64,000 nt of DNA, from assembly GCA_963714975.1 (NCBI GenBank), contig CAVQQD010000002.1:640001-704000 (forward strand), written 5' to 3'. This stretch comes from an uncultured Gammaproteobacteria bacterium (GTDB lineage Bacteria > Pseudomonadota > Gammaproteobacteria > JAURND01). This document shows positions 12,993-23,638 of this stretch, piece after piece. Both the position numbers and the translations under genes were made by a program. The notes beneath the pieces are model-generated. The model ran no database searches and had not been told where the DNA came from. It saw only the letters and a list, made by a program, of their open reading frames with translations. Each line of letters opens with the position of its first letter. The first letter of the stretch is position 1.

Positions 12993-13044
12993 TCACCAAT
13001 TAATTAGGATCATCTAATCATCCACTTAGCCGAGGAGTTAACCC

Positions 13045-13587
13045 ATGAGTCGTGAATTATTAGAATTGAAAGCCGCCCTTCATAAGCTTGATGAGACCGA
13101 TTTAAGTCTTAGAAAGAAACATCAAAATGCTCAAAATGTATTAGGGCAGATAGAAAAATATTTAGAGGATGGATCACCTGATAATGAAACTAAAGCTTTA
13201 ATTAACACTGCACTAGAAAAGATCAAGGGAGTGGCTAAGCATTATGCCCAGAACTGGCATGACCATGACCATGACCATGACCATGATCATGAAATCTCGC
13301 CAGGTCAGCGGGGGTTGGCTGGTGCATGGTTTGTGGCTGCAATTGCGGGACCAATCGCGTCAAGCTATGCACCAGACGAAGTGACTCGACGAATTTTAAT
13401 GTTTTCACCTGTAGAATCATTCGCTCTCTTGGCGTTGTATATAGCTTTTCAGAACTGGCACAATGCTTCTGCTGAAGAAAAAGAGACTTTGAACAGAGTT
13501 AGAAAAATAGAAGAAAATTTTAATCAGAAGCCTGGGGAAGCACAATCAACTAACGGATGGAGTCTACTAACTGATTTCGTTTCCTAA
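13045..13587 (+). CDS. Orphan protein with N-terminal helical/coiled region, His-Asp repeat and two-helix hydrophobic hairpin (paralog 1)
   Basis: GAGGAG RBS; shares IAGP, LMFSPV.SFAL and W.NA..EEKETL with 16438-17016. Confidence 0.75.
   Translation: MSRELLELKAALHKLDETDLSLRKKHQNAQNVLGQIEKYLEDGSPDNETKALINTALEKIKGVAKHYAQNWHDHDHDHDHDHEISPGQRGLAGAWFVAAIAGPIASSYAPDEVTRRILMFSPVESFALLALYIAFQNWHNASAEEKETLNRVRKIEENFNQKPGEAQSTNGWSLLTDFVS
13258..13290 (+). repeat. (GACCAT)n coding tandem repeat encoding HDHDHDHDHDH
   Basis: cat(gaccat)4gatcat. Confidence 0.9.
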
Positions 13588-13720
13588 TTCAGGGATTTAA
13601 TTTGTTGAGGAGTTCAAACATAATACCAGCCTTCTTTCCTTGCAGAATCCGCTTGTGAGCTCTTCTCGCTTATGCTACATTTTGTACAAGAATTTGTGTA
13701 CATAACATAGTGAGGAATTG

Positions 13721-13968
13721 ATGAAAACTTCTGTTCATGTGTTCATGAACTTAGAATATCAATGAAACGCATACTCGGTGTAGTTCAGCGTGGTCAAGTA
13801 GTGACTGTTTATTCCAGAAAGCTTCCTATTGCCAAAATTATTCCCATCAATAAACGACAGACTGAAATCCAGGAAGTAGGCTTCGGCATGTGGAAGGATT
13901 ATAGTGAAATTGCTGACGTCAATAAATATTTAAGAAAAATAAGGAAAGGACGACAGCATGATATTTGA
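13721..13968 (+). pseudogene. Phd/YefM-family antitoxin frameshifted by an 8-bp tandem duplication
   Basis: Removing one TGTTCATG (13732-13747 holds two copies) gives MKTSVHELRISMKRILGVVQRGQVVTVYSRKLPIAKIIP; GAGGA RBS; TGTACA operator-like palindromes at 13683-13707. Confidence 0.8.
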
Positions 13969-14169
13969 TACAGATGTACTTATTTGGTATTTTCGAGGTA
14001 ATAATAAGGCCAGGGAAGCCGTGTATGAAACAAGTGAAATTGGTATAAGTGCTGTTACATTAATGGAATTAATCCAAGGTGTCAGAAATAAACAAGAGCT
14101 TCAGTTGCTGCATAAATTTCTAACAACTAATTCCATCCGAGTTTTTTATTTGACATCCTTGTATCTTAA

Positions 14170-14370
14170 TTCCAATCACTCAATGTGGTTAAATATCCAA
14201 GGGCACTTGGATAGGGGTAAATATGCCGGTGACATCCTAAGGCATTAAGCCTGTAGAGGAGATTTTAGCAATTTACCCCGTACTTTATTCATACAGACCG
14301 GACGGTATCTTAGGACTTGAGGTAAATATCAATGATCCTGTATTCACAAGGTTGGTCCGAATAAAGCTAT
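14170..14370 (+). ncRNA. Predicted bridge RNA (5' hairpin, target-binding loop about 14214-14279, donor-binding loop about 14283-14366)
   Basis: Left target guide TGACATCCT 14230-14238 and right target guide GAGGAG 14256-14261 inside stem GGGGTAAAT/ATTTACCCC; left donor guide ACGGTATCT 14302-14310 and right donor guide ACAAG 14346-14350 inside stem CTTTATTC/GAATAAAG; transcript ends approximate. Confidence 0.85.
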
Positions 14371-14401
14371 CCAAGCTATTCGCAACATGTAGGATACTAC
14401 T

Positions 14402-15367
14402 ATGAAGAAAGCATTTCTAGGCATTGATATCAGTAAAAATACATTTGATGTAGCTGTGCTAATGGAAGATAAGATAAAAACTCAAAAATTCAACAATAAC
14501 GAGCAAGGCTTTAATAAATTACTTGTATGGCTAAACCAGAAGGAAATCGTGTTGTCTCAAGCTTGTATGGAAGCAATCAGTATTTACGGGCAGGCATTAG
14601 CCGAATTTCTTTATGCTCAAGAAATCCCTATAAGCGTTGTTAATCCTGCGAGAATTAAAGGATTTTCTCAAAGTGAATTAGCCCGCTCTAAAAATGATAT
14701 TCTTGATGCAAAATTAATTGCAAGATTTTGTAAGTTGATAGGCCCAGAATTATGGCAACCAACTCCTGAACCGATTAAAATATTACAGCAATGGGTTAGG
14801 AGATTGGATGATTTAATCGCTATGCACAGACAAGAAGAAAACCGATTAGAAGTTTCTGATCATTGTTTAAAGGAGCACATACAAGAGAACATTAGCCACT
14901 TAGAAAACAATATTAAGGAAGTTAAAAATGTCATTAAAAATCACATAAATAGCGATCCTGACATGAAGAAAAAAAGCAAGCTATTGCAATCTATTCCTGG
15001 TATTGGAGAAGCAACTACAGCGCAGATATTGGCTTTTATTGGGAATGTGAGTAAATTCAATAATGCGAAAGAATTGGCGGCATTCGTTGGTCTTAATCCC
15101 AAGCAACGACAATCAGGAACCTCTATCAATGGTAGAGCTAGACTCTCTAAAACAGGTGATTCGGCTCTAAGAAAAGCATTTTATATGCCCGCTGTTGTCG
15201 CCATGAGACATAACCCAATACTCAGAAATTTTTCTATGCGACTAGAAAAAACCGGCAAACACAAAATGGTTATTATTGGCGCAGTAATGAGAAAGCTTGT
15301 TCATATGATTTACGGGATACTAAAATCTGAAACCGTGTTTGATCAAAATATATTAAAATTAGCTTGA
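14402..15367 (+). CDS. IS110-family DEDD recombinase/transposase
   Basis: GIDISK, CMEA, KNDILDA (DEDD), SIPGIG, GLNPKQRQSG (catalytic Ser), AVMRKLV. Confidence 0.95.
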   Translation: MKKAFLGIDISKNTFDVAVLMEDKIKTQKFNNNEQGFNKLLVWLNQKEIVLSQACMEAISIYGQALAEFLYAQEIPISVVNPARIKGFSQSELARSKNDILDAKLIARFCKLIGPELWQPTPEPIKILQQWVRRLDDLIAMHRQEENRLEVSDHCLKEHIQENISHLENNIKEVKNVIKNHINSDPDMKKKSKLLQSIPGIGEATTAQILAFIGNVSKFNNAKELAAFVGLNPKQRQSGTSINGRARLSKTGDSALRKAFYMPAVVAMRHNPILRNFSMRLEKTGKHKMVIIGAVMRKLVHMIYGILKSETVFDQNILKLA

Positions 15368-15391
15368 CAGATGAGACGGTATCTCCTCGCC

Positions 15392-16042
15392 CTAAAGGGC
15401 GAGGATTCCTACTGCGGTTACGCAACTTGTGCGCAACTCGCTTCGGTGGGTTCTTGCTTCCTCGAGCGACCTGACTGCGTCTTCTCTCCACAAGCTAGCA
15501 AGCGGTGCCCCCGCTCTAAAATATTGATCGCGGCCAACCACATCGGCATGGTGGCTATAGCCACAACGCACGCACGCAAACTCAGCTTGCGTTTTGCGAT
15601 TGTCTGCACAAACGTGCTGACAGGCAGGACAGGTTCGACTGGTATTTTTCGGATCCACCGCCAGAAAAATGCCACCGTCAATACCCATATCAATACCCAC
15701 TGGGGTAGTAGCTGTTGGCAAGGGTTGACTCTCTTCACGCTCGGTCTGCACTGATACAAACCACAAGCCATTGCATTGCTTAACGATGACGTTTTTAATT
15801 TTCCCTACTACATCGCGACTGTTGCGATAGCGTATCCATCCCAATTTTGGCAGAAAAATACGGTTATTATCTTGATCCAGCTTAAACCCTTTGAAAACGA
15901 AAACTATCTGATGAGTGAGCTTTTTTCTTGAATTTGGGGAAAGCAGCACGGTGGGCGAAGAAGTTTTTAAATCGATCAAGGTCCTTAGTGATTGTTGAAG
16001 GTTGGGAAGGCGATTGTTGCAGGTAGGGCATTTCTTTTTTCC
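15392..16042 (-). pseudogene. tnpB: tnpB remnant (5'-truncated, frameshifted, internally deleted between RuvC-I and the zinc finger)
   Basis: GIDMGI is joined directly to [20 protein letters not shown]; RuvC-II segment missing. Confidence 0.85.
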
Positions 16043-16437
16043 ATAGAAGAAATTAATTTACATGCTATCCATCTTTTAGAAGACTATGTACTTTCTGATG
16101 GAATTGAGTTGGCTGATGCGCTAATAGCAGCAACCTCCTTGCACTACGGTGAAGAGATACTTACTTCAAATATTAAACATTATCGTTGTTTGCCCAATTT
16201 AGTTTTAAACAAATTCGTTCCAGCCTAGTCACCTATCTGAGTCTTAAATGAGCTGTCTGCATCGGCTAGGTCTGGTCACAGGCTCTCAGCTCGCGTCCAC
16301 ACGATTGGAGGGATGTGGGGGGTGGTAATTAATTACAAATTCACCCACAAAATTGCTAGACAACTCAGTATGGATAAGTTAATCTTTTGCGACTTTGCAG
16401 GATCCATTCCAATCATCACCTAGCCGAGGAGTAAACT

Positions 16438-17016
16438 ATGAGTACTGAAACGCGAGAACAGCAGCTGAAAAAGGCTATTAAACCGCTTGAAAAGCTTGTT
16501 CATTCATCATTATCTGAGCGGAGCCGCTTTGAACCTATTGCACAACAACATCGAATTGCTCAAAGCGCATTAAAAGTGATAGAGGACTATGAGCCTAATT
16601 CTGAAACAGATTCACAGACTAAGGCCGAAATTCAGCAGGCACTACTAGAGATAAAAAAAGTAGCCAATGACTATGCTCAGCTATGGGAAGAGCATGAAAG
16701 TTCAACGCAGAGTTCAGTAGTAGCTTGTCTGTTCTGGGGAGCTGCTTCAATTGCTGGACCCGTAGTAGGAGCGGAAATTATTGAATCCAATCCGTTGGTC
16801 GGTCATGTTTTAATGTTTTCACCTGTAATATCATTTGCCCTAATGGCGATCTGTCTCTTTTTAACCAAGTGGAATAATGCTTACTCTGAAGAAAAAGAGA
16901 CTTTAAAAAGAATTGAAACAATTCAAGAAAATCTCAATAAGCAGTCTCAGCTTCAGTCGAAGCTTGACGAATCTGGTAATGATGGGCGCACTTTTCCATT
17001 AACTAGTGTTGTCTAA
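16438..17016 (+). CDS. Orphan two-TM hairpin protein (paralog 2)
   Basis: Homologous upstream region and protein motifs shared with 13045-13587. Confidence 0.75.
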   Translation: MSTETREQQLKKAIKPLEKLVHSSLSERSRFEPIAQQHRIAQSALKVIEDYEPNSETDSQTKAEIQQALLEIKKVANDYAQLWEEHESSTQSSVVACLFWGAASIAGPVVGAEIIESNPLVGHVLMFSPVISFALMAICLFLTKWNNAYSEEKETLKRIETIQENLNKQSQLQSKLDESGNDGRTFPLTSVV

Positions 17017-17042
17017 TTCAATACATTTTCGTACTCCGCAGG

Positions 17043-17192
17043 TGTCATCCCGAGCGAAGCGAGGGATCTCATGAATGTGGCAAAGCATATGATAAAAAAT
17101 CTGTATGGGACTCTTCTTTAAACAGCGAGATCCCTCGCTTCGCTCGGGATGACACCTCTGGGGCGGGATGACATTCGCTCGGGATGGCACCT
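17043..17192. repeat. CGTC/TGTC-type REP-like inverted dimer (GTCATCCCGAGCGAAGCGAGGGATCTC ... GAGATCCCTCGCTTCGCTCGGGATGAC) plus partial copies
   Basis: Perfect inverted repeat of about 30 bp; relatives at 35811-35872, 37050-37140, 56228-56372 and 62913-62948. Confidence 0.85.
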
Positions 17193-17312
17193 GGGAGTTA
17201 CACATTTTCTGGCATAACAGCCCGGTAATTATTTGCACTAGGCTGTTGTTTTGGGAGGGGCTTAGATTCCTCCCGTCTTAATTACTAATAATAATATTTA
17301 GGAACTTAGCTT

Positions 17313-17954
17313 ATGACTCTTCGGCAATTGCAAAACATTCTTAATACTCTTAATAATCCCACAGCTGCAATTATGCGCCAATATTCTACGTATCAATATG
17401 CCAGAGGCGTATTAATAGCGTTGGAAAATAGTTTAAATCCCAATATAAATAATCCAATACCTAATAATCAAGTTGAAGTGATGAGAGCTATATTAAGTAA
17501 GATAAAGCAAGAGGCTCGACACTATGCTTGCCAATGGTACAAGCGTATTGGTTCATGCAAAAATTTAGCTACAATACTGGCGGTAACTATATGTTCGGCA
17601 GTTGTGGCTACAGCCGGATTTTTAGGAACGATGTTTGCAGTTGGACTTGCGCCGGGCGCATTGTATTTTTGGTTTCTCCCTGTGGTGGGATTAGTGGGGG
17701 CAAGTGTATATGTCTCTTTAAGAGAGGGGGTCAGAGCGCTTACTGAACTGAGAGATATATTTCGCAGAGTTGGCATTTTAGAACGAAACCTGAACCTAAA
17801 TGTTGAGCAGCCTCAGCAACTTCGTGAGGAATCGGAATCTAAGTGGGAATCTAAACGGGGATCTGAGGTAGAATTAGTGTCATTTTCCAATCATCCTCCC
17901 GATCCTCCTGATTCTGAGCGAGGAATAACGCTACCTGGCGCTCTTACGGTATAG
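17313..17954 (+). CDS. Orphan protein with long bilobed hydrophobic segment (distant paralog 3)
   Basis: Same layout; ILSKIKQEARHYACQW resembles ALEKIKGVAKHYAQNW. Confidence 0.65.
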   Translation: MTLRQLQNILNTLNNPTAAIMRQYSTYQYARGVLIALENSLNPNINNPIPNNQVEVMRAILSKIKQEARHYACQWYKRIGSCKNLATILAVTICSAVVATAGFLGTMFAVGLAPGALYFWFLPVVGLVGASVYVSLREGVRALTELRDIFRRVGILERNLNLNVEQPQQLREESESKWESKRGSEVELVSFSNHPPDPPDSERGITLPGALTV

Positions 17955-19069: not shown

Positions 19070-19181
19070 TTCTAGGATTTGAATCCGCCGGAGAGGTTTT
19101 TAATGTTATCCTCCTGCGCCGTAAAACCCCGTCATTCATGACGAGGATATAAGGCGCACAACCGCGAAGCGAAGTGAGCGC

Positions 19182-19595
19182 TTAGTGGGGAGAGTTCTGT
19201 TGCTCGATATAGTGTCGAATGACAGAGATGGGCGCTCCTCCACAGGAAGCAGCAAAGTAACTGGGAGACCACAGTACTCCTTTCCAATAACACTGCAGAT
19301 TTTGAGAGTGTGCTTGGCGAAGGCGACGAGAAGAAACGCCTTTGAGGCTATTGACTAACCGTGACAACGATATTTTGGGTGGATAATTAACCAATAAGTG
19401 CACATGGTCACGCTCTCCTTCCATTTCGACCAATGTCGCGTCAAAGTCTTCGCAGACACTATAAAATACTTCACTCAAGAGCTCTAGCATGGGTTTTGTA
19501 AAAACACATTTGCGATACTTTGTCACAAATACCAAGTGAGCATGTAAATTAAAAACACAATGTCTGCCGTGTCGGATGTCTATTGAACTATTCAT
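19182..19595 (-). CDS. tnpA: IS200/IS605 HUH (Y1) transposase
   Basis: HLVFVTKYRK, DHVHLL (HUH), LWSPSYF, YIEQQ. Confidence 0.96.
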   Translation of the reverse strand: MNSSIDIRHGRHCVFNLHAHLVFVTKYRKCVFTKPMLELLSEVFYSVCEDFDATLVEMEGERDHVHLLVNYPPKISLSRLVNSLKGVSSRRLRQAHSQNLQCYWKGVLWSPSYFAASCGGAPISVIRHYIEQQNSPH

Positions 19596-19621
19596 AGACC
19601 AATAGTATATTCATTGGTACT

Positions 19622-20794
19622 ATGAAAATCAAAAAAGCCTATCGTTTTCGCTTAAAACCCAGCCAAGAGATTGAGCAGCAACTGTCCGCTTATGCAGGAC
19701 ATTGTCGATTTGTATGGAATAAATGTTGCCGCATGAATTTGGAACGCTTGCAACGACAGGAGCGTATTCTGCGCTATGCAGAATTTGATTTTTGGGTGAA
19801 GCAATGGAAGCAATCTGCAGAATATGGTTTTTTGAAAGAATGTCCAGCACATATCGTGCAACAAAAATTGCGTGATTTAGATCGAGCATTTTCCGATGCA
19901 TTTGACAAAACGCAGCCAAATAAACGATTACCTCGCTTCAAGAAAAAAGGTCGTCACGATAGTTTTCGATTTCCGGAGCCGAAGCAAATCGAATTAGAAG
20001 GCAACCGTCTGAAATTACCGAAATTAGGTTGGATTCATTTTTACCGAAGCCAGGAGGTCATAGGGGACATACGAAATGTGACGGTATCGCGGCAAGGAAA
20101 ACATTGGTATATCAGTATCCAAGTACAACAAGACATCTCTTCGCAGTCAACAGCAGTCGATAGCGTAGGTATAGACGCAGGCATTGCAAAATTCGCGACC
20201 CTATCCAATGGTGACACTATAGAATCCTTGAATAGTTTTAGGCAGATAGAAAAAAGATTAGGGATAGAACAGCGCAAATTAGCGAAGAAGCAAAAATTTT
20301 CTGGGCGATGGAAGAAGCAAGTGGCTCGAGTAGGGGCACTGCATCAAAAAGCATCGAACATGAGACGAGATTTTTTACACAAGACTACAACCCGCATCAG
20401 CAAAAGCCACGCGGTAGTGGTTGTGGAAGATTTGCAAGTAAAAAATATGAGTCGATCCGCATCGGGAGACTTACAAAATCCCGGGGTGAATGTTGCTGCG
20501 AAGTCTGGATTAAACAAGGCGATATTAGACCAGGGCTGGTATGAATTCAGGCGACAATTGGGATATAAGCTGACGTGGAATGGAGGGATGTTCATTGAAG
20601 TATCACCCCACTATACCAGCCAGCGTTGTTCTCATTGTTTGCATGTTGCCAAGGAAAACCGTCAGACCCAAAGTGAATTTGTGTGTGTATCGTGCGGATA
20701 TGCAGCAAATGCTGATTTGAACGCGGCGAAAAATATTTTAGCAGCAGGGCATGCTGTGATGGCTCGTGGAGCAAGCGCGTTGGGTGCGGCGTAG
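19622..20794 (+). CDS. tnpB: RNA-guided endonuclease TnpB
   Basis: RuvC residues GIDAG, VVVEDL and NADLNAA all present; zinc finger CSHC..CVSC. Confidence 0.95.
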   Translation: MKIKKAYRFRLKPSQEIEQQLSAYAGHCRFVWNKCCRMNLERLQRQERILRYAEFDFWVKQWKQSAEYGFLKECPAHIVQQKLRDLDRAFSDAFDKTQPNKRLPRFKKKGRHDSFRFPEPKQIELEGNRLKLPKLGWIHFYRSQEVIGDIRNVTVSRQGKHWYISIQVQQDISSQSTAVDSVGIDAGIAKFATLSNGDTIESLNSFRQIEKRLGIEQRKLAKKQKFSGRWKKQVARVGALHQKASNMRRDFLHKTTTRISKSHAVVVVEDLQVKNMSRSASGDLQNPGVNVAAKSGLNKAILDQGWYEFRRQLGYKLTWNGGMFIEVSPHYTSQRCSHCLHVAKENRQTQSEFVCVSCGYAANADLNAAKNILAAGHAVMARGASALGAA

Positions 20795-20867
20795 AAACGA
20801 GAACCTCATACTCGTGGCACAGCCACATGTATGGAATCTCCGGCATTTATGCCGGAGAGGATGTCAA

Positions 20868-21003
20868 AAACGCTACCCCCTAAATTAGCCTCGTATAAAC
20901 CATGATGCATTTCTTGTATGGCTTTTACCAACACCTTATCTTTTATCTTCTCTTGCAATGCCCACTTATGAAACTCTTTATTTTTCAAAATATACATTGG
21001 CAT
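20868..21003 (-). pseudogene. RelE/ParE-family toxin N-terminal remnant cut by IS605
   Basis: YILKNKEFHKWA..KAIQEMHHGLYEANLGGSV resembles RelE-like toxins; remainder and antitoxin absent. Confidence 0.7.
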
Positions 21004-23218: not shown

Positions 23219-23602
23219 TTGCATTGCAGTAAGAATAATTCAGAAGGTTTTGTGCTGATTACCGCATTATTATATTTAATGGTAATAACCCTACTGGTAA
23301 TGAGCGCTTTTGGCAGCAGTATCCTACAAGGTCAAATGACACAGCACATGTATGATGAGTTGCAAGCATTAGAGCGAGCTCAGGCAGCATTATTAACAGC
23401 AGAGCAATCAATTCAAGGCACAGAACTGATGGGAGAGGGGAGTGATCATGGGGTAAATTTTTCTTTTAAACGGCTGACGGAAAATAAAGGCGGTATTTAT
23501 TATCAAGTAAATGCCACAAGTACTTTTGCTGCGGCTAAAAGCCAACTGCAAAGCATTTGGCTGATGCCGGATAAAAAAAGAGTGTGGTGGTCGGCGATTT
23601 GA
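23219..23602 (+). CDS. PilX-like N-terminal-domain minor pilin (intact copy)
   Basis: EG/FVLITALLYLMVITLLVMS..ALERAQAALLTAE; follows a pilW 3' copy. Confidence 0.7.
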   Translation: MHCSKNNSEGFVLITALLYLMVITLLVMSAFGSSILQGQMTQHMYDELQALERAQAALLTAEQSIQGTELMGEGSDHGVNFSFKRLTENKGGIYYQVNATSTFAAAKSQLQSIWLMPDKKRVWWSAI

Positions 23603-23638
23603 CATCCTCACCTTCCTAAGGGAAGGTGAGGATGTCAA
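23599..23638. repeat. Perfect 40-bp palindrome made of two IS605-type right ends
   Basis: TTGACATCCTCACCTTCC-TAAG-GGAAGGTGAGGATGTCAA, with 18-bp arms. Confidence 0.85.

Follow-up and report, generated by a model that had tools for sequence, protein, structure and literature searches.

What does an IS110-family insertion sequence recognize when it is found inside the end of another transposon? The question is raised by a 64,000-nucleotide stretch of DNA from an uncultured Gammaproteobacteria bacterium (GenBank assembly GCA_963714975.1, contig CAVQQD010000002.1, positions 640,001 to 704,000; referred to here as the window, in whose own positions features are given), in which such an element splits the right end of an IS200/IS605-type TnpB transposon. 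Among the RNA-guided enzymes of mobile elements, bridge-RNA recombinases and TnpB/omega-RNA nucleases form the two latest families, and both are becoming genome editors. A preliminary description, made from the letters of the window, had taken the inserted element for an IS110 bridge recombinase whose RNA is programmed against the right ends of IS605/TnpB transposons, and had called it an RNA-guided parasite of another RNA-guided transposon family. From the sequence comparisons reported below we consider it very probable that the element is indeed a bridge-RNA-guided IS110 aimed at the right end of IS200/IS605 TnpB transposons, between the subterminal hairpin and the terminal GATGTCAA.

Results

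The element, listed with the other features of the locus in Table 1, starts with TGTATCTT at 14160 and ends with ACGGTATCT at 15376–15384. It is flanked on the left by TTGACATCCT (14150–14159) and on the right by CCTCGCCCTAAAGGGCGAGGATTCC (15385–15409), and both junctions carry a CT dinucleotide. Its recombinase matches the Pfam families DEDD_Tnp_IS110 (PF01548, 4.9e-23, residues 6–150) and Transposase_20 (PF02371, 9.5e-29, residues 193–277), and residues 4–315 align with the PDB chains of IS621 (E 1.2e-70) and ISCro4 (E 2.2e-72). In the phmmer alignment D9, E57, D99, D102 and S238–G239 lie opposite D11, E60, D102, D105 and S241–G242 of IS621, for which catalytic roles are given by Hiraizumi et al. 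2024; the numbering of the IS621 PDB chain was taken as +2 relative to that of the paper, since all five residues then fit. Having both the N-terminal DEDD RuvC-like and the C-terminal Tnp domain, the element is by its sequence a member of the IS110 family, IS110 subgroup.

Upstream of the gene lie 242 nt that fold into a short hairpin followed by two stem-loops, with a single-sequence folding energy of −54.9 kcal/mol (z = −3.4; 1 of 200 shuffles folds as well). The first stem-loop, the target loop, comprises an outer stem at 14215–14226/14268–14279 and an inner hairpin at 14240–14252; the second, the donor loop, comprises an outer stem at 14296–14301/14352–14357 and an inner hairpin at 14311–14340. 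Relatives of the recombinase were gathered from genome and metagenome contigs, and alignment of the upstream regions of 13 of them, followed by RNAalifold, returned the same architecture with 41 pairs, 93.7% of the cells of the alignment being paired. Both sides of the pair have changed in 25 of these 41 pairs, against 12.2 in shuffled alignments (0 of 500 reach 25) and at most 8 when the partners are slid by 1–3 columns. A covariance model built from the 13 relatives (R1) locates this RNA upstream of the recombinase gene, giving 80 matches in a set of 81 sources and 79 in one of 80. The donor guides (ACGGTATCT, ACAAG) are nearly invariant in the family alignments and the target guides are hypervariable between elements, only their core-reading CT and AG being constant. 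By fold and covariation, the layout is that of the IS621 bridge RNA.

In the window element the guides match their DNA counterparts at every position, namely 9/9 for the left target guide, 6/6 for the right target guide, 9/9 for the left donor guide and 5/5 for the right donor guide. The coordinates that the preliminary description had given for flanks, ends and guides all hold on rereading the letters, and its placement of the guides in loops is borne out, all four lying within the internal loops of the two conserved stem-loops. Its identification of an IS110 bridge recombinase agrees with the Pfam and PDB matches, the five aligned catalytic residues and the two-loop RNA, and the folding and covariance scoring that it proposed gave a two-loop structure of unusual stability with support from covariation.

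A further trait concerns the element's circular form. On joining of the ends, the candidate −10 hexamer TATCTT (14162–14167) would lie 17 nt from the TTGACA listed in Table 1, which stands at the same distance from the element end in 14 of the 18 relatives printed. This pair fits the circle-junction promoter known for IS110 elements (Durrant et al. 2024). In the linear element, a sigma-70 scan yielded 5 sites where 4.0 were expected, which is no excess over chance.

Table 1. Coordinates of the inserted element, its predicted RNA and guides, the split transposon end and a second transposon in the window
Feature	Position	Strand	Description
IS110-family insertion sequence	14160–15384	+	1225 bp, one copy of the CT core counted
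Recombinase gene	14402–15367	+	321 aa, the single long open reading frame (ORF) of the element
Predicted bridge RNA region	14191–14360	+	5' hairpin, target loop and donor loop; model R1, 167.8 bits
Left target guide	14230–14238	+	TGACATCCT (TGACATC + core CT); 5' side of target internal loop; equals left flank 14151–14159
Right target guide	14256–14261	+	GAGGAG (GAGG + AG); 3' side of target internal loop; complementary to CT + CCTC, 15383–15388
Left donor guide	14302–14310	+	ACGGTATCT (ACGGTAT + CT); equals last 9 nt of the element, 15376–15384
Right donor guide	14346–14350	+	ACAAG; complement of CT + TGT, first bases of the left end
TTGACA, candidate −35 half	15364–15369	+	formed as a promoter half only at the circle junction; read from sequence
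Outer 10 nt of split IS605-type right end	14150–14159	−	AGGATGTCAA on the tnpB strand, terminus TCAA
Inner part of split right end	15385–15409	−	subterminal hairpin CCTCGCCC/GGGCGAGG, then ATTCC
TnpB element remnant	15385–16045	−	5'-truncated, internal deletion of ~393 bp
Second IS605-type element, complete	19110–20871		tnpA 19182–19595 (−); tnpB 19622–20794 (+, 390 aa)

The DNA on either side of the element was then compared with related copies in the same genome (2.56 Mb, 43–45% GC). The right flank runs into a tnpB remnant which, by blastn against a full copy, covers reference blocks 461–835 and 1229–1515 at ~98%, and whose 195-aa ORF matches Cas12f1-like TNB. Full tnpB copies elsewhere in the genome encode 402 aa with the Pfam domains OrfB_IS605, Cas12f1-like TNB and HTH_OrfB_IS605, the left end of this element has the hairpin CCCCGTCATTCATGGCGGGG, and the genome holds three Y1_Tnp (TnpA) loci, one of which belongs to the second IS605-type element of the window. 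On the strength of its tnpB domains, the Y1 tnpA genes in the genome and the hairpins at both ends, the target element is assigned to the IS200/IS605 family. Free full-length right ends read, on the tnpB strand, GGAAT, hairpin, AGGA[ACT]GTCAA and then unique flank; the ATTCC beyond the hairpin in the window is this GGAAT, which on the tnpB strand stands 5' of the hairpin foot, and likeness between independent insertion sites starts at TTGAC. The preliminary description had restored an empty site by removing the element from the letters, and a free paralogous counterpart of that site, reading TGACGTCCTCCTCGCCCTGAAGGGCGAGGATTCC, is present at C3:268402. What it had taken for a canonical IS605 right end does run into tnpB, in a genome with the matching left-end hairpin and Y1 tnpA genes.

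As can be seen from Table 1, the two target guides together read TGAC[A/T]TC-CT-CCTC, a 13-nt word that lies at the right-end tip when the strand opposite to that of tnpB is read. Its TGACATC is complementary to the terminal GATGTCA(A), its CCTC represents the last four bases of the hairpin stem, and its core CT is complementary to AG, the dinucleotide directly 3' of the hairpin foot, so that crossover would fall right after the foot, 8 nt inside the terminus. The TCAA of the right end finishes 10 nt from the hairpin foot, a geometry as in IS608. The preliminary description had placed the landing site between the hairpin and TCAA, which stands, and at the scaffold/guide junction of the omega-RNA, which does not: the crossover itself is 8 nt inside the right end.

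Agreement between guides and flanks extends over the family. In this comparison, element boundaries were set from the donor guides alone and the target guides were then compared with the flanks; the 159 hits of the model yielded complete guides for 149, a left boundary for 90 and a right boundary for 137, the remainder being dropped. All 7 non-core bases of the left target guide match the flank in 32 of 86 elements (~1.0 in shuffled pairings) and at least 6 in 50 of 86 (~3.4), and all 4 bases of the right target guide match in 77 of 134 (7.1). These counts include the five own-genome copies and some duplicates and are therefore not independent, with the effect still large. Within the own copies, position 14234 of the left guide is polymorphic (A in 2, T in 3), and the flank base equals the guide base in 4 of 5. 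As relatives tolerate a mismatch there, this agreement is no more than suggestive.

Four full copies of the IS110 element (99–100% identity) are present in this genome, together with one 711-bp 5' part and one 31-nt left-end stub. The left junction reads TTGAC[A/T]TCCT in 5 of 6 cases (the window copy, L002, L003, L005 and the L006 stub), the right junction consists of hairpin, ATTCC and tnpB in 3 of 4, the orientation being convergent with tnpB throughout. The tnpB at whose right end L002 is inserted is an intact gene of 402 aa. Thus the tabulation of flanks of other copies, proposed in the preliminary description, gave mostly the same spot, and two of the checks that it had named as able to overturn its claim, the sites of other copies and the position of the guides relative to the loops, did not do so. 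Two of the six cases are fragments. The stub (L006 1491–1530; G000:C2:270049–270080) comprises ~31 nt of the IS110 left end directly after TTGACATCCT, and the 5' part (L005; G000:C1:90926–91636) follows TTGACTTCCT; our reading of both is that they are remains of further insertions at right-end termini, truncated later.

Of the ten right ends of the tnpB type, three carry the perfect word TTGACATC-CT-CCTC, and an IS110 copy occupies each of them. The seven free ends read TTGACTTC-CT-CCCC (twice), TTGACGTC-CT-CCCC, TTGACGTC-CT-CCTC and TTGACATC-TG-CCTC, with two broken, and the perfect 13-mer, with either A or T at position 5, has 0 free occurrences in the 2.56 Mb. The right ends of the second IS605 type, reading TTGACATC-CT-CTCC and thus carrying two mismatches to the right guide, are free in 6 of 6 cases; taking these two commonest types together, each of the 13 free right ends is either broken or mismatched. 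In the free ends at C2:514218, C3:268432, C3:487820, C1:102476 and C2:610776, all differences from the occupied ends fall in the hairpin loop or on bases that the bridge RNA reads, the changes being CT to TG in the core, A to G or A to T at left-target position 5, and T to C in the stem. Such variants could represent escape or mere drift. The tnpB gene is intact in 1 of 3 occupied and 4 of 7 free copies, numbers too small to be informative.

The left guide TGAC[A/T]TCCT occurs in 9 of the 159 bridge RNAs, namely those of the five own copies and of four other loci, L029, L110, L111 and L112, at 61–66% protein identity (L029 61%; L110 and L111 66%). L029, from a public metagenome-assembled genome titled Gammaproteobacteria bacterium, has the right guide GGAG and the flanks TTGACACC-CT-CTCCGGCG...CGCCGAAG-ATTCC; its right flank, CTCCGGCGTGAACGCCGAAGATTCC, leads to a 407-aa tnpB (44% identical to the own TnpB) and a divergent Y1 tnpA. 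L110 and L111 have the right guide GGTG, the site TTGACATC-CT-CACCGCC...GACGGTG-ATTCC and the right flank CACCGCCATAAATGACGGTGATTCC. Their left flanks differ upstream of TTGACATCCT, so their shared repeat ends at GTCAA, and the assignment of this site as a right end is based on its hairpin–ATTCC architecture and on the shared repeat boundary. A contig from run X4 joins the 3' end of a 95–99% alike element to TCCGGCATAAATGCCGGAGATTCC, the hairpin of the second IS605 type; this junction lies at a repeat and may be an assembly chimera, and is to be read with care. As judged from these sites, the left guide stays on the shared terminus across lineages and the 4-nt right guide follows the stem (CCTC, CACC, CTCC). 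Homologues had been expected to sit at IS605-like right ends, and L029 and L110/L111 do so, at the homologous spot of diverged right ends and with right guides that covary. The closest relative, L109 (74% identity), has different guides and a different site, and the target can therefore switch quickly.

A recombinase search over 60 related genomes gave only distant homologues at ≤51% identity (10 of 61 genomes in the tally, which includes G046, whose loci L013 and L020 were left out of the analysis). The single-protein search of the genome contigs found no relative and was repeated with alignment A1. Matches to the target-loop pattern in G121 (18 hits), G091 and G061 were rejected as other repeats or coding sequence, the model accepting 0 of 11 loci. 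A sister subclade (L156, L177, L188, L186, L097 and ~25 others) carries the left guide (G/A)TTTCACCT and the right guide TTGTAG, and its right flank reads ACAAA, ~26–30 variable nt and (A)TTGAGGATTAC, often followed by GGATTGAAAG. The idea that this subclade (left guide GTTTCACCT) targets CRISPR repeats was dropped, as no arrays were present in L156 or L188.

Some further features of the window were recorded. The second, complete IS605-type element has its left-end hairpin downstream of tnpA, and its right end, GGAATCTCCGGCATTTATGCCGGAGAGGATGTCAA at 20833–20867, is free. At 23599–23636 lies a perfect palindrome, TTGACATCCTCACCTTCC-TAAG-GGAAGGTGAGGATGTCAA, which represents a hairpin with an IS605-type terminus on each side and carries TGACATC-CT-CACC twice, readable by the L110/L112 right guide GGTG. 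The TnpB right end split by the IS110 element itself adjoins a split PIN-domain (VapC-like) gene: its N-terminal part, 64 aa long and matching Pfam PIN at 5.2e-06, stops at the TnpB right end, and its C-terminal part continues after the TnpB remnant, at ~16046–16228. We read this as a PIN gene struck first by the IS605-type element and then by IS110. A small ORF without Pfam match (13762–13968) lies upstream of it, this ORF and the N-terminal part of the PIN gene falling within 13762–14149, and the two genes presumably form a toxin–antitoxin pair. Three ORFs around the mobile-element cluster (13045–13587, 16438–17016 and 17313–17954; 180–213 aa) look like paralogues by eye, with a similar coiled N-terminal part and two hydrophobic stretches, one of them with a HDHDHDHDHDHE run.

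Discussion

The proposed mechanism is as follows. The IS110 element would move as a double-stranded circle and integrate by RNA-guided DEDD/serine recombination, both as IS621. The donor loop would read the element's own circle junction, ACGGTAT-CT-TGT, and the target loop TGAC[A/T]TC-CT-CCTC, the predicted target for a right end–left end (RE–LE) junction donor being TGACATCCTCCTC. Each integration would separate the subterminal hairpin of an IS605-type right end from the terminal cleavage site, so that the hairpin and the 5' guide bases stay beside tnpB while TCAA comes to lie 1.2 kb off. Transcription through the hairpin would then continue antisense into IS110, and the transcript would lose the last 8 nt of the end together with the flank-derived guide. 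In IS608, the cleavage site pairs with four bases 5' of the foot, A-10 and G-9 directly 3' of the foot form base triplets with the guide, and cleavage requires both these two bases and the tetranucleotide guide on the 5' side of the foot (He et al. 2011). On the IS608 model, TnpA should be unable to cleave the right end of the split copy. The RNA of ISDra2 TnpB consists of the tnpB 3' end, the right end and ~16 nt of flank as guide (Karvelis et al. 2021), and the omega/reRNA of the split copy would no longer end in a flank-derived guide. It is from this IS608 and ISDra2 biochemistry that we infer the loss of both IS605 mobility and TnpB targeting.

Several observations weigh against a bridge RNA aimed at TnpB right ends. 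All support comes from sequence, and recombination activity is a prediction. Among the sequencing runs, no RNA run contained the element, DNA runs matched small shares of it (0.20 or less, all as contigs), and the contigs of X1–X4 cover scattered pieces of 151–404 nt in which no joints appear. The habit is rare: this left guide is present in 4 of 154 non-own bridge RNAs, and 400 other genomes of the class, searched for the target-loop pattern with 1 mismatch allowed, yielded no bridge RNA that carries it. Within this genome the counts are small and the copies related, and one full IS110 copy, L004 (G000:C2:1202801–1204025), lies outside a TnpB end. It sits 12 codons into a ~460-aa open frame, at the site GTCCTTC-CT-CCTC, which shares with the guides the core, 4/4 right-target and 4/7 left-target bases, and is probably an off-target, gene-disrupting insertion. 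By tblastn, no tnpB was found in the short flanks of L110 (416 nt), L111 (279 nt) and L112, and L112 has the matching 13-nt word and a right flank without hairpin. L003, L110 and L111 each have a guide–flank mismatch at left-target position 5, and L029 has one at position 6; given these mismatches, and with A/T tracking in 4 of 5 own copies only, the matching is not strict. Finally, an E-value scan of 13000–17500 against Rfam 15 found no bridge-RNA family, the sole match being sot0042 on the right-end hairpin, at 17.8 bits against a gathering score of 88.

Two explanations would dispense with guided targeting of the right end as its cause. One holds that a single IS110 insertion was spread afterward, as a TnpA-moved composite or by segmental duplication. 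The three occupied right ends are near-identical, their left flanks differ from TTGAC outward, and a TCAA-ended composite would give the same pattern. Under the IS608 geometry (10 nt, guide pairing), however, a 1.2-kb spacer makes excision of such a composite implausible, and the occupied tnpB ends do not group: over 270 positions L003 differs at 7 from the other occupied ends and at 6 from free ones, and L002 at 1 from three free copies. The IS110 copies moreover carry different left-guide alleles, the guides match the site, three other lineages sit in diverged right ends with matching guide changes, and L004 shows a free-standing insertion. We regard such passive spread as highly improbable. 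The other holds that the recombinase protein itself reads the hairpin, the guide matches being fortuitous or secondary, and is in our view scarcely credible. Target stem-loops do contribute in ISPpu10, and some mismatches between guide and flank are tolerated here; against this stand family-wide guide–flank matching far above that of shuffled pairings, target guides that vary while the scaffold stems covary, a right target guide that shifts with the stem in L029 and L110, and the experimental demonstration of RNA guidance for the homologue IS621 (Durrant 2024; E 1e-70).

Guided targeting of the right end leaves two views of what the habit is for. The IS605 end may be a neutral safe harbor, that is, a repeated, dispensable, GC-rich stem-loop entered by the same RNA-guided mechanism, with the damage incidental, and to this we assign an even chance. 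IS110-family elements use repetitive extragenic palindromic sequences (REPs) (Tobes and Pareja 2006; Durrant 2024), REPs resemble the subterminal hairpins of IS200/IS605 elements (PMC3333891), and in ISPpu10 the stem-loop of the target is an added determinant of specificity. Many other members of the present family adjoin hairpins or palindromes as well (for example L043, L104, L170 and L124), and full occupancy of perfect sites with mismatched free sites fits saturation as well as an arms race. The second view, possible but on balance doubtful, is that this IS110 lineage has specialized as a hyperparasite of RNA-guided IS200/IS605 elements, with right-end variants and guide alleles as traces of an arms race. 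The left guide would then read a terminus common to many IS605 lineages (GATGTCAA and the two tetranucleotide-contacting bases) and the short right guide a lineage-specific hairpin stem; one integration would uncouple the cleavage site from the TnpA hairpin and put other sequence in place of the TnpB RNA's flank-derived guide, costing the copy both mobility and homing, and the arms-race alleles would be A/T in the left guide and GAGG, GGTG and GGAG in the right. Safe harbor and antagonism differ only in what selection acts on, and no point here speaks against the former. Of the earlier phrase "RNA-guided parasite", guided targeting of IS605 therefore stands, whereas "parasite" exceeds the data, which a neutral harbor fits equally.

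A bridge-RNA-guided IS110 aimed at TnpB right ends would add a natural target class to REPs, attC sites and Tn21 inverted repeats, and would connect the use of REPs by IS110 elements with Y1/HUH hairpin ends at large. One RNA-guided system would here be naturally aimed at another, at the bases read by the IS605 transposase and where the guide RNA ends, providing a simple natural case in which to study how transposons conflict or coexist. This natural set of bridge RNAs, whose left guide is constant while a 4-nt right guide varies and reads into a DNA hairpin, would moreover allow effects of target structure on recombination to be addressed. For annotation, such insertions would account for a class of split, apparently dead TnpB ends.

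Comparison with Known Systems

Recombinases of this family, bridge RNAs and site-specific insertion into repeats have all been described before. What appears to be new is an IS200/IS605 right end as natural target of an IS110/IS1111 element, for which the landing-site evidence, as read from the genomes, is strong. A literature search, with supplementary target tables and ISfinder outside its scope, found no IS110/IS1111 element described as targeting an IS200/IS605 end.

IS621 of E. coli, for which structure 8wt6 and related entries exist, resembles the present element in its full-length recombinase homology with DEDD and Ser residues, a bridge RNA 5' of the gene with target and donor loops, the CT core, the 7+2 left guide and the short right guide; a promoter rebuilt at the circle junction would be a further likeness. 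IS621 differs in its natural target, which is a REP rather than the right end of an IS200/IS605 TnpB element, and in guides, donor ends and host. ISPpu9 and ISPpu10 of Pseudomonas putida likewise insert into repeated palindromic sequences. In ISPpu10 a GC-rich stem-loop beside the base-paired target adds specificity, and here the right half of the target, as predicted from the guides, is itself the foot of a GC-rich stem-loop; the stem-loops of ISPpu9 and ISPpu10, however, are REPs or intergenic repeats, as far as the literature drawn on describes them, and not the functional end of another transposon.

On the side of the target, the split element shares with IS608 and ISDra2 a tnpB with OrfB_IS605, TNB and HTH domains, a Y1 tnpA, hairpins at the ends and TCAA at 10 nt from the foot, and differs from them in that the commonest type in this genome (10 right ends) carries tnpB only. 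The closest precedent for such targeting is that of IS4321 and IS5075 on the inverted repeats of Tn21, where the specific target is again the end of another transposon family. These elements belong to a different subgroup; IS1111-type elements, as stated in the seekRNA paper, have their guide RNA on the 3' side of the gene. Their target is the inverted repeat of a DDE transposon, which encodes no guide RNA, rather than a Y1/HUH hairpin end.

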